Source of the DNA: Thermoplasmata archaeon
GTDB lineage: Archaea; Thermoplasmatota; Thermoplasmata; Lutacidiplasmatales; UBA184
Length of the DNA stretch: 64,000 bases
Direction of reading: 5' to 3'
NCBI GenBank assembly: GCA_022749995.1
Contig: JAKIWO010000003.1
Location: 9,926 to 73,925, forward strand
Numbering within the stretch: position 1 is the stretch's first letter; each line of letters begins with the position of its first letter. Below are positions 4,142 through 56,255 of the stretch, in pieces. A program made the position numbers and the translations under genes. Under the pieces are notes generated by a model. It saw only the letters and a program-made list of their open reading frames with translations, was not told where the DNA came from and did no database searches.

Positions 4142-4680
4142 GAACCTCCGTCGGCACGTGAAAGGTACTCGGCGAGCCGGTCGACCACCTGCTCGCGGGT
4201 GAGCTCGCTCGAGTCGACGGTGAACTCCGCCTCCTCGTGGGCCAGATCGATGCCGTAGTATTCCTTGTAGCGGCGCCGCTCGCTCTCCTCGCGAAGCCGG
4301 ATGAGACGCAGCGCGCTCGCCTCGTCGGTTCCTTCCCGCGCGGCCGCGCGGGCGGCCCGCACCGGCTCGGAGGCGACGACGGCGACCCAGAGGGCGGGCG
4401 TGCCGCGTCGACGCAGCAGCGGCCCCTGGATGCGGCCCTCGAGCAGCACGCCGGGCCGAGCCTCGGCGAGCATCGAGTCGTCCAGGCTCCGGTCGATCGA
4501 GCCGTCGGTCTCCGCGAGCCGCGAGAACTCGGCGAGGGAGAGGCCCCGGTTGGCCGCCTCGGCCCGGAACCGGTCCCCGGCAGAGAGCAGCGTCAGCTCG
4601 AACTTCCGGGCGAGCGACCGGGCGGCGGTCGTCTTTCCGCTCCCCGGAGGGCCGCCCAGGGCGACCGGCCGGTGGATCAC
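4138..4680 (-). CDS. cmk: Cytidylate kinase, archaeal type
   Basis: GGPPGSGKTT P-loop, SAGDRFR, LEGR; synteny with cbf5. Confidence 0.92.
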   Translation of the reverse strand: MIHRPVALGGPPGSGKTTAARSLARKFELTLLSAGDRFRAEAANRGLSLAEFSRLAETDGSIDRSLDDSMLAEARPGVLLEGRIQGPLLRRRGTPALWVAVVASEPVRAARAAAREGTDEASALRLIRLREESERRRYKEYYGIDLAHEEAEFTVDSSELTREQVVDRLAEYLSRADGGS

Positions 4681-5459
4681 GCGGTACCCCGCGGTTCGGC
4701 CACGGGCGGGAGCCCGACCGCCGCGGGATGCCGGGCGAGGGTGTAGTGCTTGAGCGCCCGGCGGAACAGGAGCGAGAGAGGGACGGTGAACACCGAGAAC
4801 AGGACGAACCAGACGGGAATGGGGAGCCCGCCCAGGTGGCCGAGCAGGTTCACGTAGGCACCGCCCAGGTTGACGACGCTCGAGTGGGCCGTGACGATCG
4901 TGCCGGAGTGGAGGGTGAGGTAAAGGTACACCCAGTTGTAGATCGCGATAACCAGGAACCAGGTGATCGCCATCCCCTTGAGCTGGGCGACGGTGACCTC
5001 GCCGGAGAGCTTCTGGAGCGTGGCCTGGTGCTCCTTGAGCGCCTCGACCCGGTCCTTCTTGCCGGAGCGAAGCGCCTCCATCTGGACCTTGCGCAGCGCG
5101 GCTCCCCAGCGCTGGACGCGGGCGGCGAGCACCCAGTCGGTGGTGTAGTTGTAGGCGATCGCGGTGATCAGCATCTCGATCAGCGCCGCGAGGAACATCG
5201 TCACGAGCGGGAACCGCCCCCCGAGGCCGATCGAGGGGGAGAGCAGCCGGTCGAGCGTGAGGCTCACGCCGGAGCGGGTCGACGTGTCGAACAGCATCAG
5301 GATCCCGAGCAGGAAGAGGAACGTGTAGAGGAAGGTGGAGATCTTGAACGTCGGGGCCGGCGGCTTGCGCGCGGCCTCGGTGTCGATCTCCTTCTCGAGC
5401 TCCTCCTCCTCGGCCTCTTCGGCCGAGGCACTGGCCGGGAGGGGGGCCTCCTCCGCCAT
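4677..5459 (-). CDS. EMC3/TMCO1 (DUF106) Oxa1-superfamily membrane protein
   Basis: TM-coiled coil-TM architecture; canonical position between secY and cmk. Confidence 0.85.
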   Translation of the reverse strand: MAEEAPLPASASAEEAEEEELEKEIDTEAARKPPAPTFKISTFLYTFLFLLGILMLFDTSTRSGVSLTLDRLLSPSIGLGGRFPLVTMFLAALIEMLITAIAYNYTTDWVLAARVQRWGAALRKVQMEALRSGKKDRVEALKEHQATLQKLSGEVTVAQLKGMAITWFLVIAIYNWVYLYLTLHSGTIVTAHSSVVNLGGAYVNLLGHLGGLPIPVWFVLFSVFTVPLSLLFRRALKHYTLARHPAAVGLPPVAEPRGTA

Positions 5460-5463
5460 CGGA

Positions 5464-7230
5464 TTACTCTCCGCCCAGGAAGCGGCGGAGCAGCGGGTTC
5501 ATCTCCATCAGCTGCTCGCGGCCCATCGCCTCGTACAGGTTGATGATGATGCCGACGGTGAGCAGCACGCCGGTGCCGCTCGCGTTGCCGACGGTGCCGA
5601 TCAGGTCGGCGCCGGCGGCGAGCGCGCCGACGGCCGCGCCGGAGATGACGGTGATGACGGGGATGTACCGGGCCAGCACGCGCCGCAGCACCCGGGGCTC
5701 CCTACGGAATCCGGGGATCTGCATGCCGCTCGCCTCGATCTGCCGGGCCACCGCCTCCGGGCCCATGTTCGTCGTCTGGATCCAGAACTTGGCGAACAGG
5801 ATCGAGCCGCCGACCATGACGGAGAAGTAGATCGCCACGTGCGCCAGGTCCTGCCACCACTGGTGGCCCACGAGCAGCTGCCCGTACAGCTGCGGGTTCA
5901 GGATCGGCAGCAGCCAGGACTCGAGTCCGTTGACCGTGGACAGGTAGTACGCCACCCCGCTCATGGGAGTGGTCTGCGAGATCCCGAGGCTCGCTGCCTG
6001 GGTCGAGCTCGACGCGTACGAGCCGAGCCACCATTGGTGCCCGATCAGCGGAAAGTGGCTCAACGTGGGGTTGGTCCAGAGCAGGATGGTGAACATGGAG
6101 ACGTTGGCGAGCAGCGCCGCCATCAGGATGACCGGAATGTTGCTGGCGTAGATCAGGCGCAACGGGTAGCGGCCCCGGGCGCCGCGCGCCTCGGCGTGGG
6201 AGAGCGGTAGCTCGATCCGCGTCGACTCGGTCCACGCGACCAGGAAGAAGATGGCGGCCGTGCCGAGCAGGGCGATCACCGGATTGGGTTGGTGGAGCAG
6301 GATCTGCTCCCAGCCACCGCCGGCGAGCCCCTGCGCGTTGGTGTGGGTGAAGAAGTAGATCGTCTTCGGGATCGTGCCCGCCGGCGGGTTGGTGGAGCTC
6401 ACCGGTCCCGGCGAGGCCGGCACCCAGTTGAGGGTCCCCTGGATGATCTGCTGCGAGACCCCCGCGGCGATGAACAGCGAGATCCCGCTACCGATCCCCC
6501 ACTTGGAGACCACCTCGTCCATCAGGAACACGAGATAGCTGCCGAAGACGAGCTGGCCGATGATGACGATCTCCGCGAGCAGCATCCCGTTGCCGGGGCT
6601 CGCGACGTTGAAGCTCGAGACGAGCGCGGTGGAAGGGAACAGGTAGCCGAAGACCTGGGGCACCGCCTCGACGAAGATCATGGCGATGACCATGACTTTC
6701 TGGGCCCCCTGGTACATCCCCTTGTCCTCGTCGTCGGTGAGGTCCAGGTTGATGATCTTCGCCCCGGTGAACAGTTGCATGATGATCGAACCGGTGACGA
6801 TCGGTCCGATCCCGAGGTGCATCAGCGTGCCCTGCGCGCCGGCCAGGATCGCGCGGTAGCTGGCGAACAGGTCGATGACGCTCGCCTGGTCGACCCCGTA
6901 GAGGAAGATGTTGGTCAGGAGGAAGTACATCAACAGGATCGAGATCACCCAGAACAACTTGGACCGGAAGTGGACGTGGCCCTTCGGCTGGGCGATCGCG
7001 GGCATCCGCGAAGTGATCGGTTTCCATCCGTAGAGCTTCGACTTGGTCCCGTCGTACGACAGGCCGAGCAGGAGCAGCCCCAGGATGCACAGCAGTCCGA
7101 GCCCGGCCAAGCCGAGCGCGATCACCGTCGGCCGGCCCCAGTACCAGTAGAGGAAGAGCAGCAGTCCACCGACGATGGCGAGCGGGAGCGCCCAGCTCCA
7201 GTTCCGTGGAGTCTCCTCGTCGGAGGCCAT
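5464..7230 (-). CDS. secY: Preprotein translocase subunit SecY (long, 588 aa)
   Basis: LMHLGIGPIVTGSIIMQL, KWGIGSGISLFIA, YASNIPVIL and GMQIPGFRR motifs; follows rpl15. Confidence 0.97.
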   Translation of the reverse strand: MASDEETPRNWSWALPLAIVGGLLLFLYWYWGRPTVIALGLAGLGLLCILGLLLLGLSYDGTKSKLYGWKPITSRMPAIAQPKGHVHFRSKLFWVISILLMYFLLTNIFLYGVDQASVIDLFASYRAILAGAQGTLMHLGIGPIVTGSIIMQLFTGAKIINLDLTDDEDKGMYQGAQKVMVIAMIFVEAVPQVFGYLFPSTALVSSFNVASPGNGMLLAEIVIIGQLVFGSYLVFLMDEVVSKWGIGSGISLFIAAGVSQQIIQGTLNWVPASPGPVSSTNPPAGTIPKTIYFFTHTNAQGLAGGGWEQILLHQPNPVIALLGTAAIFFLVAWTESTRIELPLSHAEARGARGRYPLRLIYASNIPVILMAALLANVSMFTILLWTNPTLSHFPLIGHQWWLGSYASSSTQAASLGISQTTPMSGVAYYLSTVNGLESWLLPILNPQLYGQLLVGHQWWQDLAHVAIYFSVMVGGSILFAKFWIQTTNMGPEAVARQIEASGMQIPGFRREPRVLRRVLARYIPVITVISGAAVGALAAGADLIGTVGNASGTGVLLTVGIIINLYEAMGREQLMEMNPLLRRFLGGE

Positions 7231-25380: not shown

Positions 25381-26148
25381 CTACGCCAGAATATGAAACG
25401 ACCGTTGCAGCCGCCGGCGCTCCGGCTCGGCGAGGGTCGCGTCATCGAGCGAGGCCACGACCGTCGAGTCGCTCCCGGCGACCCACTGGCCGAGCCAGCT
25501 CGCGAACCGCAGGGTGAGTTCGTTGCCGTACTGGGTGCGCAGCTCCTCCAGCGCATCGAGGTAGACGAGCAGCGGGGGGTCGGAGCCCCGCTCCTTGATC
25601 CGTCCGGCGATCGCGCCGGGGTCGGAACCGCTGCCGGCCTCGGGGTCGCCGGGCCGGTTGACGCTCGGTCGGAGCCACTCCACGGCTCCCTCGCCCAGCC
25701 CGAGCGGAGGGGGAGCTTCGAAGCTGATCCACAGGGCGCGGGTGTGGTGAGAAGCCTGCGCTTGGGCGAACCGTACTGCGGCGCGAGGTCGCTCCTCGCG
25801 GAACAGGAACGCCTTTCCTGGTGCCCACTGCGGCCCCGCCGAATCGCTGAGCGCCGTCCCTCCGGAGGAACTCGGGGGTGGCTTGAGCAACGGCTCCCAG
25901 CTCGATCGACGAGGAGGCGCGAGCAGGTGGCGTCGCTTGAGCTCGACATCCTCGGGGATCCGGGAGATGCGGCTCTTGACCAGCACCCGCAGCTCGGCGG
26001 TAGTGTGGCCCTGCGAGGCGTGCTGGAGCAGCTCGCGCAGCCCTTCGCGCAGCCCCTCGGCGTACCCTTGGATGTACCCCTCGGCGAACTCCGCGTCGCC
26101 CGCCGGCGCCGGGGGCTCGGCGGGGTTGGGTTCCTTGCGCCCGTTCAC
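25381..26148 (-). CDS. DUF835 domain protein with N-terminal GxxxG repeat helix
   Basis: C-terminal DUF835-like block (VYLDALEEL..YG..FASWL..VVASLD..TL..ERRRL); N-terminal EGYIQGYAEGLREG. Confidence 0.65.
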   Translation of the reverse strand: MNGRKEPNPAEPPAPAGDAEFAEGYIQGYAEGLREGLRELLQHASQGHTTAELRVLVKSRISRIPEDVELKRRHLLAPPRRSSWEPLLKPPPSSSGGTALSDSAGPQWAPGKAFLFREERPRAAVRFAQAQASHHTRALWISFEAPPPLGLGEGAVEWLRPSVNRPGDPEAGSGSDPGAIAGRIKERGSDPPLLVYLDALEELRTQYGNELTLRFASWLGQWVAGSDSTVVASLDDATLAEPERRRLQRSFHILA

Positions 26149-26630
26149 GCCGTCGCTCGACCGGCCGCGCGGGGTTCCCCGGCCGGTGACGGAAGGGGGA
26201 GGGGGCGCGGGGCGCCGTCGACCTCCACCGCGGGCGCGAACTTGTAGCCGTAGTGGATGACGCCGGCCTTGCCCTCCTCCCGGAGCTTGCGGAAGGTGGC
26301 GTGGACCTTGAGCCCGATCCGCACCTCGTGCGGGTCGATGTCGACCACCTCGGCGGTGAGCACGGGTCCCTCGACGGTCTTGACCAGCGTGAGGGCGTAC
26401 GGGACGAGCATCTCGAACCCCTCCGCGGGGTCGTGGATGACGGTGTAGGAGATCACCGTCCCTTCGCCGGAGAGCTGGAACGGTTCCATCTTGCCGAGCG
26501 ATTGGCGGTGCGTCGTGCAGGTGGGGCAGACCACGCGTGGGGGGAAGTAGACGGTCGTGCAGACCGTGCAGCGACAGCCGCCTAGGTTGTACCGCCGTGG
26601 GGTCTCGCGCCAGAAACGTGCGATCGACAT
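26145..26630 (-). CDS. DUF35 Zn-ribbon/OB-fold protein (thiolase-HMGS scaffold)
   Basis: CTVC..YFPPRVVCPTC, GTVISYTVI, TFRKL, IHYGYKF. Confidence 0.93.
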   Translation of the reverse strand: MSIARFWRETPRRYNLGGCRCTVCTTVYFPPRVVCPTCTTHRQSLGKMEPFQLSGEGTVISYTVIHDPAEGFEMLVPYALTLVKTVEGPVLTAEVVDIDPHEVRIGLKVHATFRKLREEGKAGVIHYGYKFAPAVEVDGAPRPLPLPSPAGEPRAAGRATA

Positions 26631-26637
26631 GGTGATC

Positions 26638-27807
26638 CTAGTTCGTCCGCTCCAGCAGGTGGACGACGCTCGTCGCGCCCGTGCCGCCTACGCTGTGAGC
26701 GAGCGCGAGCTGCGCTCCCGAGACCTGCCGGCCTTCCGCTTGGCCGCGGAGCTGACGTACGAGCTCGACGACCTGCGCCACTCCGACCGCACCGAACGGA
26801 CGACCTTGCGCCTTGAGCCCGCCGGAGGTGTTGACCGTCGGCGTGCCGCCCATGGCGAACCGACCCTCGGCGAAGGCCGTGCCCGCGCCACCCTTGCCGA
26901 CGAATCCCAGGTCCTCGAGCGCGAGCAGGGCACTGATCGAGTAGGCGTCGTGCAGTTCGACCACGTTCACGTCCGAGGCGGTCTTGCGCGCCTGGCCGAA
27001 GGCGCGCTTGGCGGCCACGATCGTGGAGTCGAGGCGCGTCAGGTCGCCCCGGTGGTGGAGCGCCATCGTGTCGCTGGTGACGACGCTCGCCCGGATCGCG
27101 ACCGGCGTGTCGGTGAACTTGCGCGCTCGGTCGAGCGGCCCGAGCACGACCGCAGCCGCCCCGTCGGAGAGCGGCGCACAGTCGAGCATCCCGAGCGGCT
27201 CGGCCACCGGTGGGGCGCCGAGCACCTGCTCCAGGGTGATGCGGTTGCGGTAGTGCGCGTTCGGGTTCTTGGACCCCATCTCGTGCGCCTGGACCGGCAC
27301 CTGCGCGATCTGTTCGCGGGTGGTGCCGTGCTCGTACATGTGCCGCCGGGCGATGAGCGCCCAGAGTCCGGGCAGCGTCGCGCCGAAGACGCTCTCCCAC
27401 TCCTGGTCGGCGGTGGCGCCGGTGATCCGGTTGGCCGTCACGTCCGGAACATCGGTGAGCTTCTCCGCGCCACCCACGACTACGAAGTCGTAGGCACCGC
27501 TCGCCACGGCGAGGTAGCCTTGGTGGAGCGCGACGGCACCGCTGGCCTCGCCCGCCTCGATACGGATGGCCGGTAGGTGATGGCCGGCGAGGCCGGCGTA
27601 GTCCATCAGCAGGGGCGCGATGTGCTCCTGCTCGATCAGCGAGCCGCTCGCCATGTTCCCGAGGAAGAGCGCCCCCAGGTCGCGCGAGGAAAGCCGTGCG
27701 TCGACGAGCGCTTGGAAGCCGGCCTCGATGCCGAGCTCCCGGAAGGAGCGGTCCCAGAGCTCCCCGAACCGGGTCATCCCGATCCCGAGGATCGCGACCT
27801 CGCGCAC
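26638..27807 (-). CDS. Archaeal thiolase-domain protein of the mevalonate cluster; catalytic Cys and His substituted
   Basis: VAILGIGMTRFGE, GAEKL, DGAAA, ELHDAYS, SGGLKA. EAGEASG replaces EAACASG and GRP replaces GHP. GTG start overlaps the HMGS stop. Confidence 0.9.
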   Translation of the reverse strand: MREVAILGIGMTRFGELWDRSFRELGIEAGFQALVDARLSSRDLGALFLGNMASGSLIEQEHIAPLLMDYAGLAGHHLPAIRIEAGEASGAVALHQGYLAVASGAYDFVVVGGAEKLTDVPDVTANRITGATADQEWESVFGATLPGLWALIARRHMYEHGTTREQIAQVPVQAHEMGSKNPNAHYRNRITLEQVLGAPPVAEPLGMLDCAPLSDGAAAVVLGPLDRARKFTDTPVAIRASVVTSDTMALHHRGDLTRLDSTIVAAKRAFGQARKTASDVNVVELHDAYSISALLALEDLGFVGKGGAGTAFAEGRFAMGGTPTVNTSGGLKAQGRPFGAVGVAQVVELVRQLRGQAEGRQVSGAQLALAHSVGGTGATSVVHLLERTN

Positions 27808-28859
27808 TAGCTCCCTCCTAGGTGGATCTTGCCACGGAACTTCGCGTAGACGGCGTACGGGATCTCGACGCCTCCGGTGAGGAAGGACTCGACGAGCGCC
27901 CCTGCGGAACGGGAGTAGCTCTCGATGGCATCGGTGATATCGAAGTCGAAGGCGTCGGAGCCGGCGCCACTGCCGTAGCCGACCATCAGCACGCGCTCCC
28001 CGGCCCGGGCGTGGTCGAGCACATTGGCGAGGCCGATGAGGGCCGCGCCGGAGTAGGTGTTGCCGATGAACGGCGTCACGAGCCCGTACCGCATCTGCTC
28101 GTCGGTGAACCCGAGCTGCTTGCCCACCCGCGCCGGGAACTTGCCGTTCGGTTGGTGGAAGACCACGTGGGCGTAGCTCTTCGGAGTCGTCCCAGCTCGA
28201 TCCATGATGCGCTTGGCGCACTCCGTGACGTGGCGGAAGAATGCCGGTTCGCCGGTGAAACGGCCGCTATGGCTCGGGTACCGTTGACCCTCCCGACGCC
28301 AGAAATCCGGGGTGTCGGTGGTGTAGCTCAACGTGTGGAGCACGCGGGCGATCACCTGCTCCCGTCCGATGACGAAGGCTGCGCCGCCGGCGCTCGCCGA
28401 GTACTCGAGCGCGTCCCCCGGCGCTCCTTGGCTGGTATCGGAACCGATCGCCACGCCGTAGCGGACCATCTCGGCCCCGACCAGCCCGAGGCAGGTCTGG
28501 ATCGCGGCGGTGCCGGCCTTGCAGGCGAACTCGAAGTCGGCCGCGGTGAGCCCGGGGGTGGCTCCCACGGCTTGGGCGACCACGGTCGCCGAGGGCTTGA
28601 CCGCGTACGGGTGGGATTCACTGCCGATGTAGAGCGCTCCGATCTCCTGCGGGTCGATCTTCCCGCGGAGGAGGGCAACGCGAAGGGCCTCGGTCGAGAT
28701 GGTGATCGTGTCCTCGTCGGGGGAAGGGACCGACTTGCGCTGGACATTGAGCGAGGCACCCATGCTCGCCCCGTCGACCCCCCAGACCTTCCCGATTTCC
28801 GTCGGCGTGATTCGATAGCGCGGCACGTACGCCCCGTAGCTCACGACCCCGGCTTGCAT
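27807..28859 (-). CDS. Hydroxymethylglutaryl-CoA synthase (archaeal)
   Basis: GSESHPYAVKP, EFACKAGT, LEYSASAGG, DFWRR, FHQPNGKFP, YGSGAGSD. Confidence 0.96.
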   Translation of the reverse strand: MQAGVVSYGAYVPRYRITPTEIGKVWGVDGASMGASLNVQRKSVPSPDEDTITISTEALRVALLRGKIDPQEIGALYIGSESHPYAVKPSATVVAQAVGATPGLTAADFEFACKAGTAAIQTCLGLVGAEMVRYGVAIGSDTSQGAPGDALEYSASAGGAAFVIGREQVIARVLHTLSYTTDTPDFWRREGQRYPSHSGRFTGEPAFFRHVTECAKRIMDRAGTTPKSYAHVVFHQPNGKFPARVGKQLGFTDEQMRYGLVTPFIGNTYSGAALIGLANVLDHARAGERVLMVGYGSGAGSDAFDFDITDAIESYSRSAGALVESFLTGGVEIPYAVYAKFRGKIHLGGS

Positions 28860-28876: not shown

Positions 28877-29554
28877 CTAGAGCTCCTCAAGACGCCCCAG
28901 CATCTCCGGCGCCTCGAGCGGGCTCGTTAGGAGAGGGATGTTCTCGACCTCGCTCAGGCGGATCGCGAGCGGGTCGATGCGCCCGGGATGAGAGAGGATC
29001 ACCGCGGCCGGCTTGAGCGGGTGGGCCCGGATCGCCACCATCGGCGAGCGGCCGTACCGTACGTTGGAAAAGATGAGTGCCCGCTGCGTGGTCCATCCAT
29101 ACACCTCCACGAACCGGGAGGCGTCGATCGAGAGGATCGCACGGGGCGCGTCCAAGAGGGTGTAGCCGTGGATATCTCGCCGGATGTCCACGTGGCCCAC
29201 GGGCTTGGCGTCCAGCCGGTCGGCGAGGGTCCGAAGCGGGATGGCCACCGAGAACTCCCGTAGTGCGAGCACCCCGTCGGAGTGGGTACGCAACCCGAGC
29301 CGCTGCGCGACCCGTCCGCCGGTGTGGCTGTCGACGGCGAGCAACGCGTCGATGTACTTCCGGATAAAGGCCGCCCCGGGGCTCGCCCGGCGCTCCGACT
29401 CGTAATCCGAGATCACCGACGGTACGGTGGACAGCGAACGGGCCAAGTCCCGCTGCGAGACGGCGAAGTCCTCCCTCCACTTGCGAAGCGTCCGCCCCGG
29501 GTGTGGGGACAGGACGACCTCGCCCGCGATCTTCTCGCGGAGCTCGATCTCCAC
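28877..29554 (-). CDS. XRE-type HTH transcriptional regulator associated with the mevalonate cluster
   Basis: IAGEVVLS..PGRTLRKWREDF..SQ..LA...SVISDYES, YGWTTQRALIF, GRSPMVAIR; GTG start. Confidence 0.85.
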   Translation of the reverse strand: MEIELREKIAGEVVLSPHPGRTLRKWREDFAVSQRDLARSLSTVPSVISDYESERRASPGAAFIRKYIDALLAVDSHTGGRVAQRLGLRTHSDGVLALREFSVAIPLRTLADRLDAKPVGHVDIRRDIHGYTLLDAPRAILSIDASRFVEVYGWTTQRALIFSNVRYGRSPMVAIRAHPLKPAAVILSHPGRIDPLAIRLSEVENIPLLTSPLEAPEMLGRLEEL

Positions 29555-53384: not shown

Positions 53385-54514
53385 GCGACTCGACGGCCCA
53401 ACTCGTCTTCCTCCCGGGCGATGGCACCGGGCCGGAGGTGGTCCGGGAAGCCCGCAAGGTGCTCGACGCGCTCGGCGAGGGGGACGCGCATCCGTGGTCG
53501 GTGGAGGAGCACCCCGGAGGGGCGATCTACTACCGGGACCACGGCAAGGAGTGGGAGCCGGCCAGCGAGGAGGCAGCCCTCCACGCCGATGCAGTGCTGC
53601 TCGGCGCGGTGGGCTGGCCCGGGATCATGCTGCCCGATGGGAACATCGCCGGTGCGGCACTCGTGCTCGGGCTGCGACGGCGTCTCGACCTGTACGCCAA
53701 CGTCCGGCCGTGCCGCCTCTACCCGGGCGTGCTCCACCGGATCAGTGGAAAGTTCAGCCAGGTCTGGTCTCCCGAGAACGTCGACCTGGTGGTGGTGCGC
53801 GAGAACACGGAGGGGCTCTACACCCCCGTCCACGGTCGGCTGGACCGGGGCGGCTCCACCGACGTCGCCGTCGACACCCGACTCATCACCCGCAAGGGCG
53901 CCGAGCGGGTGATCCGGTACGCCTTCGAGCTCGCGGGTCGGCGCGGCCGGGGAGCCCCAGAGGACAAGGCCCGACGGGTCACCTGCGTCGACAAATCCAA
54001 CGTGCTCGCCGGCTGCCAGTTCTTCCGCGAGACCTACGACCGCATCGCCGCGGAGTACGCGGGCGTGGCCCGGGACTACGCCTACGTCGACGCGTTCACC
54101 CAGTGGGTCGTGCGCAATCCGGAACACTACGACGTGGTCGTCTCCACCAACATGATGGGGGACATCATCAGCGACCTGGCGTCGGTGCTCCAAGGCGGGA
54201 TGGGGTTTGCCGCCGGGGGGAACATTGGAGAGGGACATGCGATGTTCGAGCCCGTGCACGGCAGCGCCCCCAAGCACGCCGGCAAGAACGAGGTGAACCC
54301 GATGGCCACCTTTCTCGCGCTCGAGATGATGCTTCGCTACCTGGGCGACCGTCGCAGCGACAGCCGCTTCACCCGACAAGCCGACCGGCTCGAACGCACC
54401 ATCGCGCGGTTGCTCGCCGACGGTTCGGTCCGCACCTACGACCAAGGCGGCACCGTCCGCACGAGCGAGGCCGGCGACCGTGTGGCGGCGGCCATCCGGG
54501 GGGAGGCGGCGTGA
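53381..54514 (+). CDS. Beta-decarboxylating dehydrogenase (homoisocitrate/IPM/tartrate-D-malate family)
   Basis: PGDGTGPEV, GAVGWP, LYANVRP, RENTEGLY, DKSNV, NMMGDIISD, EPVHGSAP. Confidence 0.92.
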   Translation: MSDSTAQLVFLPGDGTGPEVVREARKVLDALGEGDAHPWSVEEHPGGAIYYRDHGKEWEPASEEAALHADAVLLGAVGWPGIMLPDGNIAGAALVLGLRRRLDLYANVRPCRLYPGVLHRISGKFSQVWSPENVDLVVVRENTEGLYTPVHGRLDRGGSTDVAVDTRLITRKGAERVIRYAFELAGRRGRGAPEDKARRVTCVDKSNVLAGCQFFRETYDRIAAEYAGVARDYAYVDAFTQWVVRNPEHYDVVVSTNMMGDIISDLASVLQGGMGFAAGGNIGEGHAMFEPVHGSAPKHAGKNEVNPMATFLALEMMLRYLGDRRSDSRFTRQADRLERTIARLLADGSVRTYDQGGTVRTSEAGDRVAAAIRGEAA

Positions 54515-55692
54515 GCACCGGCCGACCCGTCGCCCTGGTCGGCGGAGCCAGCACCGTCTGGGGGGTGCGCGCTGCGACCTGGTCGGAGCTGGTCCAGGAG
54601 GCCGGCGCCCGCTTGTTCGCCGCCGTACCGGGACTCGCCGCGGCGGACGTGGACTCGCTGTTCGTGGGCGCGGCCGAGCCGGAACGGTTCGCGTTCCAGT
54701 CGCACGTCGCACCGCTCGCCGCCGAGCTGCTCGGACTGGCTCCGCACCGGATCGTGCAGCGGACCGAGCTCGCCTGCGCCTCGGGCCAGTCGGCGATCCG
54801 TAGCGCCTACGCGGCAATCGCCGCTGGGCTGTCCGAGGTCGCGGTCGTGCTCGGCGTGGAGAAGATGAACCTCCCGTCGATGGCCGAGGCGAACACATCG
54901 ATGGCCTGCGTGATGGACCGGCCGTGGGACGGCGCCCACGGCGCCACCGCCCCTCCGTTCTTCGCCATGGTCGCCCAGCGGCACATGCTCGAGTACGGCA
55001 CCACGCCGGAGCAGCTCGCCGGGGTCTCCGTGAAGAACCACCGATTCGCGAACTCCAACCCGGACGCGCAATTCTACGAGAAGAAGTTCTCCCGCGAGAA
55101 GCTGCTGGGACTTCCGCTCGTCGCCCCCCCGCTACGGCTCGGGGACTGCTCCTCGATGACCGACGGGGCGGCGGCGGTGGTGCTCGTCGCCGGCGAGAAG
55201 GCCCGACAGTACACCGACACCCCGGCCTGGGTGCGGGGTTCCGGCCAGCACGCGAGCTGGCACAATCTCGCCAACAGCGGCTCCCTCACCGACTGGGTCG
55301 GGATGCGCTCGGCCGCGCGCGAGGCGCTCGGATCGGCGGGCATCACCGCCCAGCAGCTCGACTTCGCCGAGCTGCACGACTGCTTCACCATCTCGGAGCT
55401 GATCGAATACGAGATGCTCGGCCTGTGCCCGCGCGGCCAAGGGGGGCGCTACCTGGAAGAGGGCCAGACGGAGATCGGCGGCGACGTAGTGGTGAATCCT
55501 CGCGGGGGACTGCTCGGTTGCGGTCATCCGCTCGGGGCGACGGGCGTGGCGCAGGCCGTGGAAGTGTACCGCCAGTTCACCCACAGCGTGCCTCCGGCGC
55601 GGCAGGTCCCCGACCCGGAGTGGGCGCTCGTCCACAACCTAAGCGGCAGCGCCAACGTCCACTCGATGATGGTCTACCAGCGGGGGAGCTAG
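54511..55692 (+). CDS. Archaeal/SCP2-type thiolase with intact catalytic Cys
   Basis: ELACASG, GVEKM, DGAAA, ELHDCFT, GHPLGATG; GTG start overlaps the previous stop. Confidence 0.92.
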   Translation: MSTGRPVALVGGASTVWGVRAATWSELVQEAGARLFAAVPGLAAADVDSLFVGAAEPERFAFQSHVAPLAAELLGLAPHRIVQRTELACASGQSAIRSAYAAIAAGLSEVAVVLGVEKMNLPSMAEANTSMACVMDRPWDGAHGATAPPFFAMVAQRHMLEYGTTPEQLAGVSVKNHRFANSNPDAQFYEKKFSREKLLGLPLVAPPLRLGDCSSMTDGAAAVVLVAGEKARQYTDTPAWVRGSGQHASWHNLANSGSLTDWVGMRSAAREALGSAGITAQQLDFAELHDCFTISELIEYEMLGLCPRGQGGRYLEEGQTEIGGDVVVNPRGGLLGCGHPLGATGVAQAVEVYRQFTHSVPPARQVPDPEWALVHNLSGSANVHSMMVYQRGS

Positions 55693-55694
55693 CC

Positions 55695-56255
55695 TTGGCT
55701 GCCGCCACCGCTCCCCGGCGACGGAGCTCCTCCGAGCTCCCCGCCGCTGGCCCGGAGCCCGTGGCTCGACCGGCCGAACCGCGACCGGCCGCACCAGTGA
55801 AGCGCACGACTCCCACGGCATTCGACTTCTTTCCCCAGGAGGAGTCCCAGCAGACCCGTGTCAGCCGGTTCTTTGAGGAGCTGAGGGCCGGCCGGCTGTC
55901 CACCACCCGCTGCCGAAAGGACGGCGCGCTGCTGTGGCCGCCGAGGGTCGCCTGCCCGCGCTGCCATGGCGAGGACCTTGAGTGGGTGGAGCTACCGCTC
56001 ACCGGGCGACTCTACGCGTTCAGCGCCGTGCTGGTCGGGGCGCCGCTCGGTATGGAGCAGGACCTGCCGATCACGGTGGGACTGGCCGACCTGGAAGGCG
56101 CGCCGCTCCGACTGTTCGGCCGGATCGTGGGCGCAGGGTGGGAGCGGCTGAGCGTGGGCCAGCGGGTGCGGGTCGAGCCGTTCGCGGTGCCGGACGAGCG
56201 CGTGTTCTACCGGTTCCGGGTCGACGGAGGCCTCGCCGAAAATTCGTCGGCGTAG
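55695..56255 (+). CDS. DUF35 Zn-ribbon/OB-fold protein (thiolase partner)
   Basis: FFEELRAGRL..TRCRKDG..WPPRVACPRC, GRLYAFS; TTG start. Confidence 0.88.
   Translation: MAAATAPRRRSSSELPAAGPEPVARPAEPRPAAPVKRTTPTAFDFFPQEESQQTRVSRFFEELRAGRLSTTRCRKDGALLWPPRVACPRCHGEDLEWVELPLTGRLYAFSAVLVGAPLGMEQDLPITVGLADLEGAPLRLFGRIVGAGWERLSVGQRVRVEPFAVPDERVFYRFRVDGGLAENSSA

Follow-up and report, generated by a model that had tools for sequence, protein, structure and literature searches.

The question raised by this locus is how an archaeon can enter the mevalonate pathway through an enzyme complex whose first enzyme has lost the residues used in catalysis. In the literature, the archaeal complex of thiolase, 3-hydroxy-3-methylglutaryl-coenzyme A (HMG-CoA) synthase (HMGS) and a DUF35 protein is presented as the means by which archaea get past the energetically unfavourable start of isoprenoid lipid synthesis, through the channelling of acetoacetyl-CoA. 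The DNA analysed here, which will be called the window, is a stretch of 64,000 nucleotides from a Thermoplasmata archaeon (assembly GCA_022749995.1, contig JAKIWO010000003.1, positions 9,926-73,925 of the forward strand) that encodes an HMGS, a thiolase-like protein and a DUF35 protein as neighbours on one strand. The explanation that we regard as the probable one is that the thiolase-like gene encodes a non-catalytic scaffold and CoA-site subunit of the HMGS complex and that acetoacetyl-CoA comes from a separate, bacterial-type thiolase (thiolase II).

Loss of the catalytic residues

The thiolase-like protein has a full-length thiolase fold (Pfam Thiolase_C_1, 1.7e-41; Thiolase_N, 5.7e-21) and its residues 2-386 align with the M. 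thermolithotrophicus thiolase (6ESQ_A, 3.6e-104). In this alignment Glu87 (GAG, 27549-27547) stands in place of the nucleophile Cys85 ('IEAGEASG' against 'VEAACASG'), and Arg336 (CGT, 26802-26800) stands in place of the His of the GHP motif ('GGLKAQGRPFG' against 'GGLKAAGHALG'). The acid/base Cys of the HDCF motif is also gone, as the window protein reads HDAY with Ala288 ('ELHDAYS' against 'EVHDCFA'), and His286 of the same motif is retained. An earlier reading of this DNA made from its letters (the sequence-only reading) had reported the replacement of Cys by Glu and of the GHP His by Arg in an intact open reading frame (ORF), and the alignment confirms both; the change in HDCF is a third loss, which that reading had not mentioned. 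The sole Cys of the protein, Cys210 in 'DCAPLSDG', lies in a column that is equally conserved in active homologues, and therefore no relocated nucleophile is at hand; the possibility that a Cys elsewhere in the active site has taken over was rejected. Judged by sequence, the residues with which the thiolase subunit would make acetoacetyl-CoA for internal channelling are absent. The thiolase half of the channelled reaction is thus not expected to run by the known mechanism in the window complex, and acetoacetyl-CoA would have to come from outside.

The partner proteins are intact. Glu81, Cys113 and His235 of HMGS, the triad that the sequence-only reading had listed as kept, are present together with Asn267 in the alignment with 6ESQ_I, and the E-C-H-N tetrad is retained in all 316 HMGS sequences compared. 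The DUF35 protein has both its zinc ribbon and its OB fold. HMGS is single-copy in the source genome and HMG-CoA reductase is also encoded, so that, with HMGS intact, the mevalonate pathway is taken to be in use.

The close family (Lutacidiplasmatales/UBA184-like) was sampled as 80 species-level loci and compared as 81 sequences. Nearly all of the 120 closest database proteins (74-99% identical) have neither the nucleophile Cys nor the GHP His. In the family sample the nucleophile position is occupied by Gly (78), Glu (2) or Asp (1) and never by Cys. The position of the HDCF His is occupied by His (52), Asp (17) or Asn (12), that of the HDCF Cys by Ala (66), Ser (8), Gly (6) or Cys (1), and that of the GHP His by Arg (77), Gln (2), Cys (1) or Ala (1). 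The Gly codons at the nucleophile site are GGC in 39 sequences, GGG in 24, GGA in 9 and GGT in 6. Because the relatives mostly have Gly, and GAG is one base away from GGG, Glu87 is explained as a one-base change from Gly at an unconstrained position. The description of the two substitutions as multi-base changes in the sequence-only reading is therefore correct relative to the Cys and His codons and incorrect relative to the Gly of the relatives.

The thiolase-like gene is under purifying selection. The median pairwise ratio of nonsynonymous to synonymous substitution rates (dN/dS) is 0.22 for this gene and 0.16 for the neighbouring HMGS gene, and 120 of the 389 columns do not vary in the family sample.

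The kind of loss was examined by comparing 17 Cys-containing with 92 Cys-less operon thiolases column by column, where a column conserved in at least 88% of a group was counted as conserved. There are 98 columns conserved in both groups and 19 columns in which the constraint was lost, including Cys85, His336, the Phe of HDCF, Ser207 and the loop 122-128. Only one column gained constraint in the Cys-less group. Across families, G, S, T, D, E or N occurs where the nucleophile used to be, and the former GHP His is replaced by R, Q, N, D, Y, F or K. Among the motifs that line the pocket, NxSGGLK and SDG are retained, as is the HD of HDxF in most sequences. Since the catalytic sites vary freely, columns elsewhere are conserved and almost none were gained, it was concluded that the function was lost and the fold retained. 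This pattern appears unlike the new active site of the Ltp2/Sal aldolases. The protein combines lost catalytic residues, purifying selection and long-term retention, and it is a pseudoenzyme in this sense.

Extent of the loss and the probable source of acetoacetyl-CoA

In order to follow the loss beyond the close family, 300 genomes of the class and 200 genomes of the phylum were sampled, and the operon thiolase could be read in 98 of them. Within the class Thermoplasmata, 53 of 58 operon thiolases are without the Cys (37/40 and 16/18), and the only families that keep the Cys, an HDCF or HDAF motif and GHP are those designated f4, f7 and f15. In the other classes of Thermoplasmatota the Cys is missing from 29 of 40 operon thiolases, often with Asp at the nucleophile site and the GHP His retained. 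The loci of Thermoplasma sp., Oxyplasma meridianum M1 and Ferroplasma sp. have Thr or Ser for the Cys and Asn, Asp, Tyr or Lys for the His, and the same replacements were found in Acidiplasma aeolicum VT and Thermogymnomonas acidicola JCM 13583. Neither the Cys nor the His occurs in any of the loci found with a Methanomassiliicoccus query (0/80 related species for each). In all, the Cys-less state is found in hundreds of independent genomes, complete chromosomes included. A tree of 109 operon thiolases requires three to five changes of Cys state and contains one large clade of 80 Cys-less sequences and one sequence with Cys. The idea that the changes are unique to this assembly was rejected, as the loss is common to the family, the class and the phylum; to judge from the alignments and the tree, it is an ancient state common to most of Thermoplasmatota and not a peculiarity of the window locus.

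The complex genes have stayed together throughout this sample. HMGS is followed by the thiolase gene in 80 of 80 family loci and DUF35 follows in 78 of these, the contigs of the other two ending before DUF35, and the order HMGS-thiolase-DUF35 is found in all 98 loci at the class and phylum level.

Three further observations concern the same set of loci. Asp at the nucleophile position, mostly with the GHP His, was seen in loci L148-L151, L154, L157, L158, L160, L164, L166, L169, L171-L173, L179, L182 and L183, and this state, found in classes outside Thermoplasmata, differs from the forms that have Gly, Ser or Thr there. Loci L092-L097, L124 and L125 (families f22, f24, f27, f29 and f30) read 'G[G/A]GACG', in which a Cys two residues past the lost nucleophile replaces the usual Ser. 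Eleven genomes of the class (G017, G053, G118, G063, G081, G072, G089, G097, G103, G159 and G075) had no archaeal-type HMGS at E <= 1e-20; their completeness is 84-99%, for two of them the operon is present in other members of the genus, and the negative result could reflect assembly gaps or a different type of HMGS.

The sequence-only reading had proposed that acetoacetyl-CoA must come from another thiolase and had noted two other intact thiolases in the window. Both of these (1-895 and 54511-55692) carry their catalytic motifs, and the proposal is supported by the distribution of the first, thiolase II. Thiolase II was told apart from the SCP2-type thiolases by a scan with Pfam Thiolase_N (PF00108), in which it scores above 200 bits and the SCP2-type proteins score about 80-110 bits. 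Each of the 62 genomes whose operon thiolase is Cys-less was found to have it. The 16 genomes with an intact operon thiolase have thiolase II in seven cases and none in nine. There are at least three independent contrasts: in family f63, genome G365 is Cys-less with thiolase II and genome G396 is intact without it, and the others are family f15 against its tree neighbours f20/f21 and families f4/f7 against the large Cys-less clade. The loss was never seen without thiolase II and thiolase II was sometimes seen without the loss, which is the order expected if the gain of thiolase II came first.

The thiolase II of the window has all of its motifs (VCGSS, NEAYA, GHPIG and LCMGGG, providing Cys, Asn, His and Cys) and resembles biosynthetic thiolases (4E1L, 3.2e-100; Z. 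ramigera 1DLU, 9.4e-92). In other families 22 thiolase II genes were read, and 21 of them also have all four motifs; the stretch available from the remaining genome, G029, covers only the first two motifs, both of which are intact. The tightest physical link was found in family f21 (locus L139, genome G036), where thiolase II (4314-5468, plus strand) divergently adjoins HMGS (4105-3068, minus strand). In family f17 thiolase II lies about 2 kb downstream of the HMGS operon.

Because thiolase II is the only thiolase that always accompanies the loss, it is the best candidate for the replacing enzyme, rather than mainly the SCP2-type paralogue at 54.5 kb. The complete small genomes of the Methanomassiliicoccus type and related ones have no more than two or three thiolase-fold genes: besides the dead gene and thiolase II there is a single further one at the most. 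A heteromer between the dead subunit and the 54.5-kb thiolase is unlikely as a general solution, as small complete genomes of this type occur without such a paralogue.

The source genome has two further SCP2-type paralogues that lack the Cys and lie outside the window, at C62:831-2009 (minus strand) and C28:5273-7093 (plus strand). One of them has Ser, HDAF and GHP; the other, which carries long insertions, has Gly, HDAY and GHP. The C28 paralogue has a DUF35-like ORF next to it, and no such ORF was found near the C62 paralogue.

Explanations for the retained subunit

It is proposed that the Cys-less subunit would still assemble with HMGS and DUF35 and that it would be kept for architecture and CoA binding and not for catalysis. 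Free thiolase II, the bacterial-type enzyme at 1-895, would make acetoacetyl-CoA, the complex would take it up, and the intact HMGS in the complex would turn it into HMG-CoA for HMG-CoA reductase. Historically, an ancestor would have gained thiolase II, the operon thiolase would then have become catalytically redundant, and the Cys, His and Cys would have decayed as the structural role held the rest of the protein under selection. Several properties of the characterised archaeal complex are relevant here. The module is reported to be a dodecameric complex with a fused CoA-binding site, in which the thiolase is both the core of the assembly and one half of the fused chamber. Liao et al. 2026 (PMC12960953), with reference to Vogeli et al. 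2018, report that archaeal HMGS has no activity, and that the thiolase is not soluble, if produced without its partners, and they place a fused CoA site where HMGS and thiolase meet. Since HMGS is reported to be inactive alone and the CoA site is fused, HMGS may depend on the Cys-less subunit and DUF35, which would have been retained for its sake.

Five points weigh against this explanation. Seven genomes hold both an intact operon thiolase and thiolase II, and therefore thiolase II alone does not force the loss. The association between loss of the Cys and thiolase II (Fisher p = 6e-8) was calculated with genomes counted as independent and kinship uncorrected. The source genome has three intact SCP2-type thiolases, including the one at 54511-55692, each near a DUF35-like ORF, and these are possible additional sources of acetoacetyl-CoA, though not the solution in general. 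What suggests that the Cys-less subunit forms a complex is gene order and conservation, and the need of HMGS for its partners comes from a second-hand report, that of Liao et al. citing Vogeli et al.

The sequence-only reading had offered a pseudoenzyme scaffold, a sensor and new chemistry side by side. The scaffold is supported by the lost catalytic residues, the purifying selection, the conserved operon and the intact HMGS; a sensor or new chemistry gain no support, as next to no new constraint has arisen and the residues at the old catalytic sites differ freely from family to family. The sensor idea in its fuller form is that the subunit is mainly regulatory, with a former active site that would bind CoA, acetyl-CoA or acetoacetyl-CoA and tune HMGS allosterically. 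Pseudoenzymes often turn into regulators, the fold and many of the pocket-lining motifs named above are retained, and an XRE regulator heads the operon. However, no gained constraint marks a new ligand site and the pocket positions differ between families, and we consider a mainly regulatory role unlikely, noting that it partly overlaps with the scaffold and that the results fit both alike. It is a weaker prospect that the subunit is still a condensing enzyme with a non-canonical mechanism, employing either another nucleophile or the acetylated Cys of HMGS reached through the fused chamber. In favour of this, the window protein and most lineages retain the His of HDxF, a residue that the archaeal complex cannot do without (H284A), the partner enzyme in the shared chamber bears an acetyl-Cys, and some lineages have Ser, Thr or Asp at the nucleophile position. 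Yet the single Cys of the window protein is shared with active enzymes, most relatives have at the nucleophile position a Gly with no side chain, 29 of the 81 family sequences have Asp or Asn instead of the His of HDxF, and an intact thiolase II in every Cys-less genome would be needless if the subunit made acetoacetyl-CoA, all of which makes such a mechanism quite improbable.

There is precedent for thiolase-fold/DUF35 assemblies that were repurposed (6OK1, 5M3K), and the subunit could by analogy have an unrelated chemistry, like that of the Ltp2/Sal aldolases or the PhlC/MucB C-acyltransferases, in a locus whose role as a mevalonate module has ended or is one of several. This was judged very improbable: the only HMGS of the genome keeps its tetrad beside an HMG-CoA reductase, the match to 6ESQ_A is far ahead of those to 6OK1_A (9.3e-32) and 5M3K_C (2.8e-33), no newly conserved set of residues was found, and PhlC/MucB keep their Cys next to a dead HMGS-like subunit, which is the opposite of the window locus. 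That the gene is an assembly or sequencing artefact or a decaying pseudogene would be favoured by the draft state of the genome (95 contigs) and by nothing else, and it can be dismissed for practical purposes, given the intact ORF, the low dN/dS and the recurrence of the same state in so many genomes.

The scaffold explanation may also be extended. Channelling could have been rebuilt, such that thiolase II docks on, or hands its product to, the assembly of HMGS, pseudo-thiolase and DUF35 as a chimeric archaeal-bacterial metabolon. In that case acetoacetyl-CoA would be received through the old thiolase pocket together with the fused CoA site, and the nearness of the thiolase II gene to the operon in families f21 and f17 would be a trace of this arrangement, which we regard as unlikely.

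Neighbouring genes, related systems and significance

The source organism is an archaeon of 70% G+C whose closest relatives include 'Candidatus Lutacidiplasma silvani' and UBA184. The window carries on its minus strand five closely spaced genes in the order XRE regulator, HMGS, thiolase-like, DUF35 and DUF835-like (Table 1). Base 27807 is common to the TAG stop of HMGS and the GTG start of the thiolase-like gene. A Shine-Dalgarno-like motif, GGAGGG (27813-27818, minus strand), lies inside the 3' end of HMGS about 6-10 nucleotides ahead of this GTG and is consistent with translation of the two genes being coupled. The stop of DUF35 overlaps the GTG start of the DUF835-like ORF (GTGA), which may belong to the mevalonate-entry operon as a fifth gene with coupled translation.

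Table 1. Genes of the HMGS cluster and thiolase-related genes in the window (aa, amino acids; AACT, acetoacetyl-CoA thiolase)
Feature	Coordinates	Strand	Support
XRE-type helix-turn-helix regulator, leads the same-strand cluster	28877..29554	-	HTH_31 3.8e-06
Archaeal HMG-CoA synthase (HMGS), 350 aa, Glu81/Cys113/His235/Asn267 tetrad intact	27807..28859	-	6ESQ_I 4.2e-140
Thiolase-fold pseudoenzyme, 389 aa (P0001), orthologue of the archaeal AACT of the HMGS operon	26638..27807	-	Pfam, 6ESQ_A
DUF35 scaffold protein, 161 aa, zinc ribbon (CRCTVC...CPTC) and OB fold	26145..26630	-	PF01796 1.2e-19, PF12172, 6ESQ_E 1.3e-37
DUF835-like ORF, 255 aa	25381..26148	-	Pfam DUF835 20 bits, under the curated cut-off
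Thiolase II (bacterial-type), 3' part in the window; whole gene C23:9618-10820, 400 aa	1..895	+	PF00108 4.0e-79
SCP2-type thiolase paralogue, intact (TELACASG, HDCF, GHP)	54511..55692	+	sequence motifs
DUF35 partner gene of the 54.5-kb thiolase	55704..56255	+	PF01796 3.5e-11; PF12172 4.7e-08

Several known systems resemble this locus in part. The chain-length factor (KS-beta) of type II polyketide synthases is a Cys-less paralogue from the thiolase superfamily and an obligate partner of an active condensing enzyme. It differs from the window subunit in that it belongs to another branch of the superfamily, forms a heterodimer with its active paralogue and has no DUF35 bridge to HMGS. The steroid aldolases Ltp2-ChsH2(DUF35) and Sal (6OK1) also have a Cys-less SCP2-type thiolase fold that works with a DUF35 domain. 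Unlike the window family, in which the column comparison, made without reference to the Tyr positions of Ltp2, brought out no new conserved residues, these aldolases possess a catalytic set of newly conserved residues and are encoded in steroid-degradation clusters with hydratases, whereas the partner in the window is HMGS and the similarity to 6OK1_A is much lower than that to the archaeal thiolase.

The closest system is the archaeal thiolase/HMGS/DUF35 complex (Vogeli 2018), to which the window locus provides three full-length orthologues (thiolase 3.6e-104, HMGS 4.2e-140 and DUF35 1.3e-37) with the same gene order, the E-C-H-N tetrad of HMGS and the zinc ribbon and OB fold of DUF35. It departs from that complex in having a thiolase without Cys85, the HDCF Cys and the GHP His, a state that is always accompanied by thiolase II. 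The bacterial PhlACB (PpATase, 5M3K), MucABC (SmaATase) and P. fluorescens ACAT/HMGS-DUF35 systems are likewise tripartite and likewise retain one dead subunit, and Liao et al. 2026 (PMC12960953) describe that the bacterial relatives with a dead HMGS-like subunit still require the tripartite assembly. In those systems it is the HMGS-like subunit that lost the E-C-H-N residues and the thiolase that keeps its Cys, so that the window locus is their mirror image, and its pathway stays in primary metabolism.

A literature search found no published description of a dead thiolase in an archaeal mevalonate complex. The nearest statement found is a remark by Hoshino and Gaucher 2018, who noted that many 'other AACT homologs' are without the catalytic CH motif and that some archaea have a bacterial thiolase II. 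What is new here is the extent of the loss across Thermoplasmatota, cultured genera included, and its strict association with an intact thiolase II.

Thermoplasmatota include the cultured acidophiles of the Thermoplasma group as well as the gut and soil methanogens of the Methanomassiliicoccales, and the proposed explanation is directly testable with proteins from cultured strains. If the operon thiolase is inactive across most of the phylum, the genes of Thermoplasmatota that are named 'acetyl-CoA C-acetyltransferase' by JGI are probably mis-annotated, which would distort pathway reconstructions. The locus would be a natural example in which a non-homologous enzyme, thiolase II, was gained, a subunit became a pseudoenzyme, and its structural role preserved it. 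A dead thiolase half in most of the phylum would also mean that not all archaea require channelling by this complex, and that the support of HMGS is a second reason for the complex to exist.

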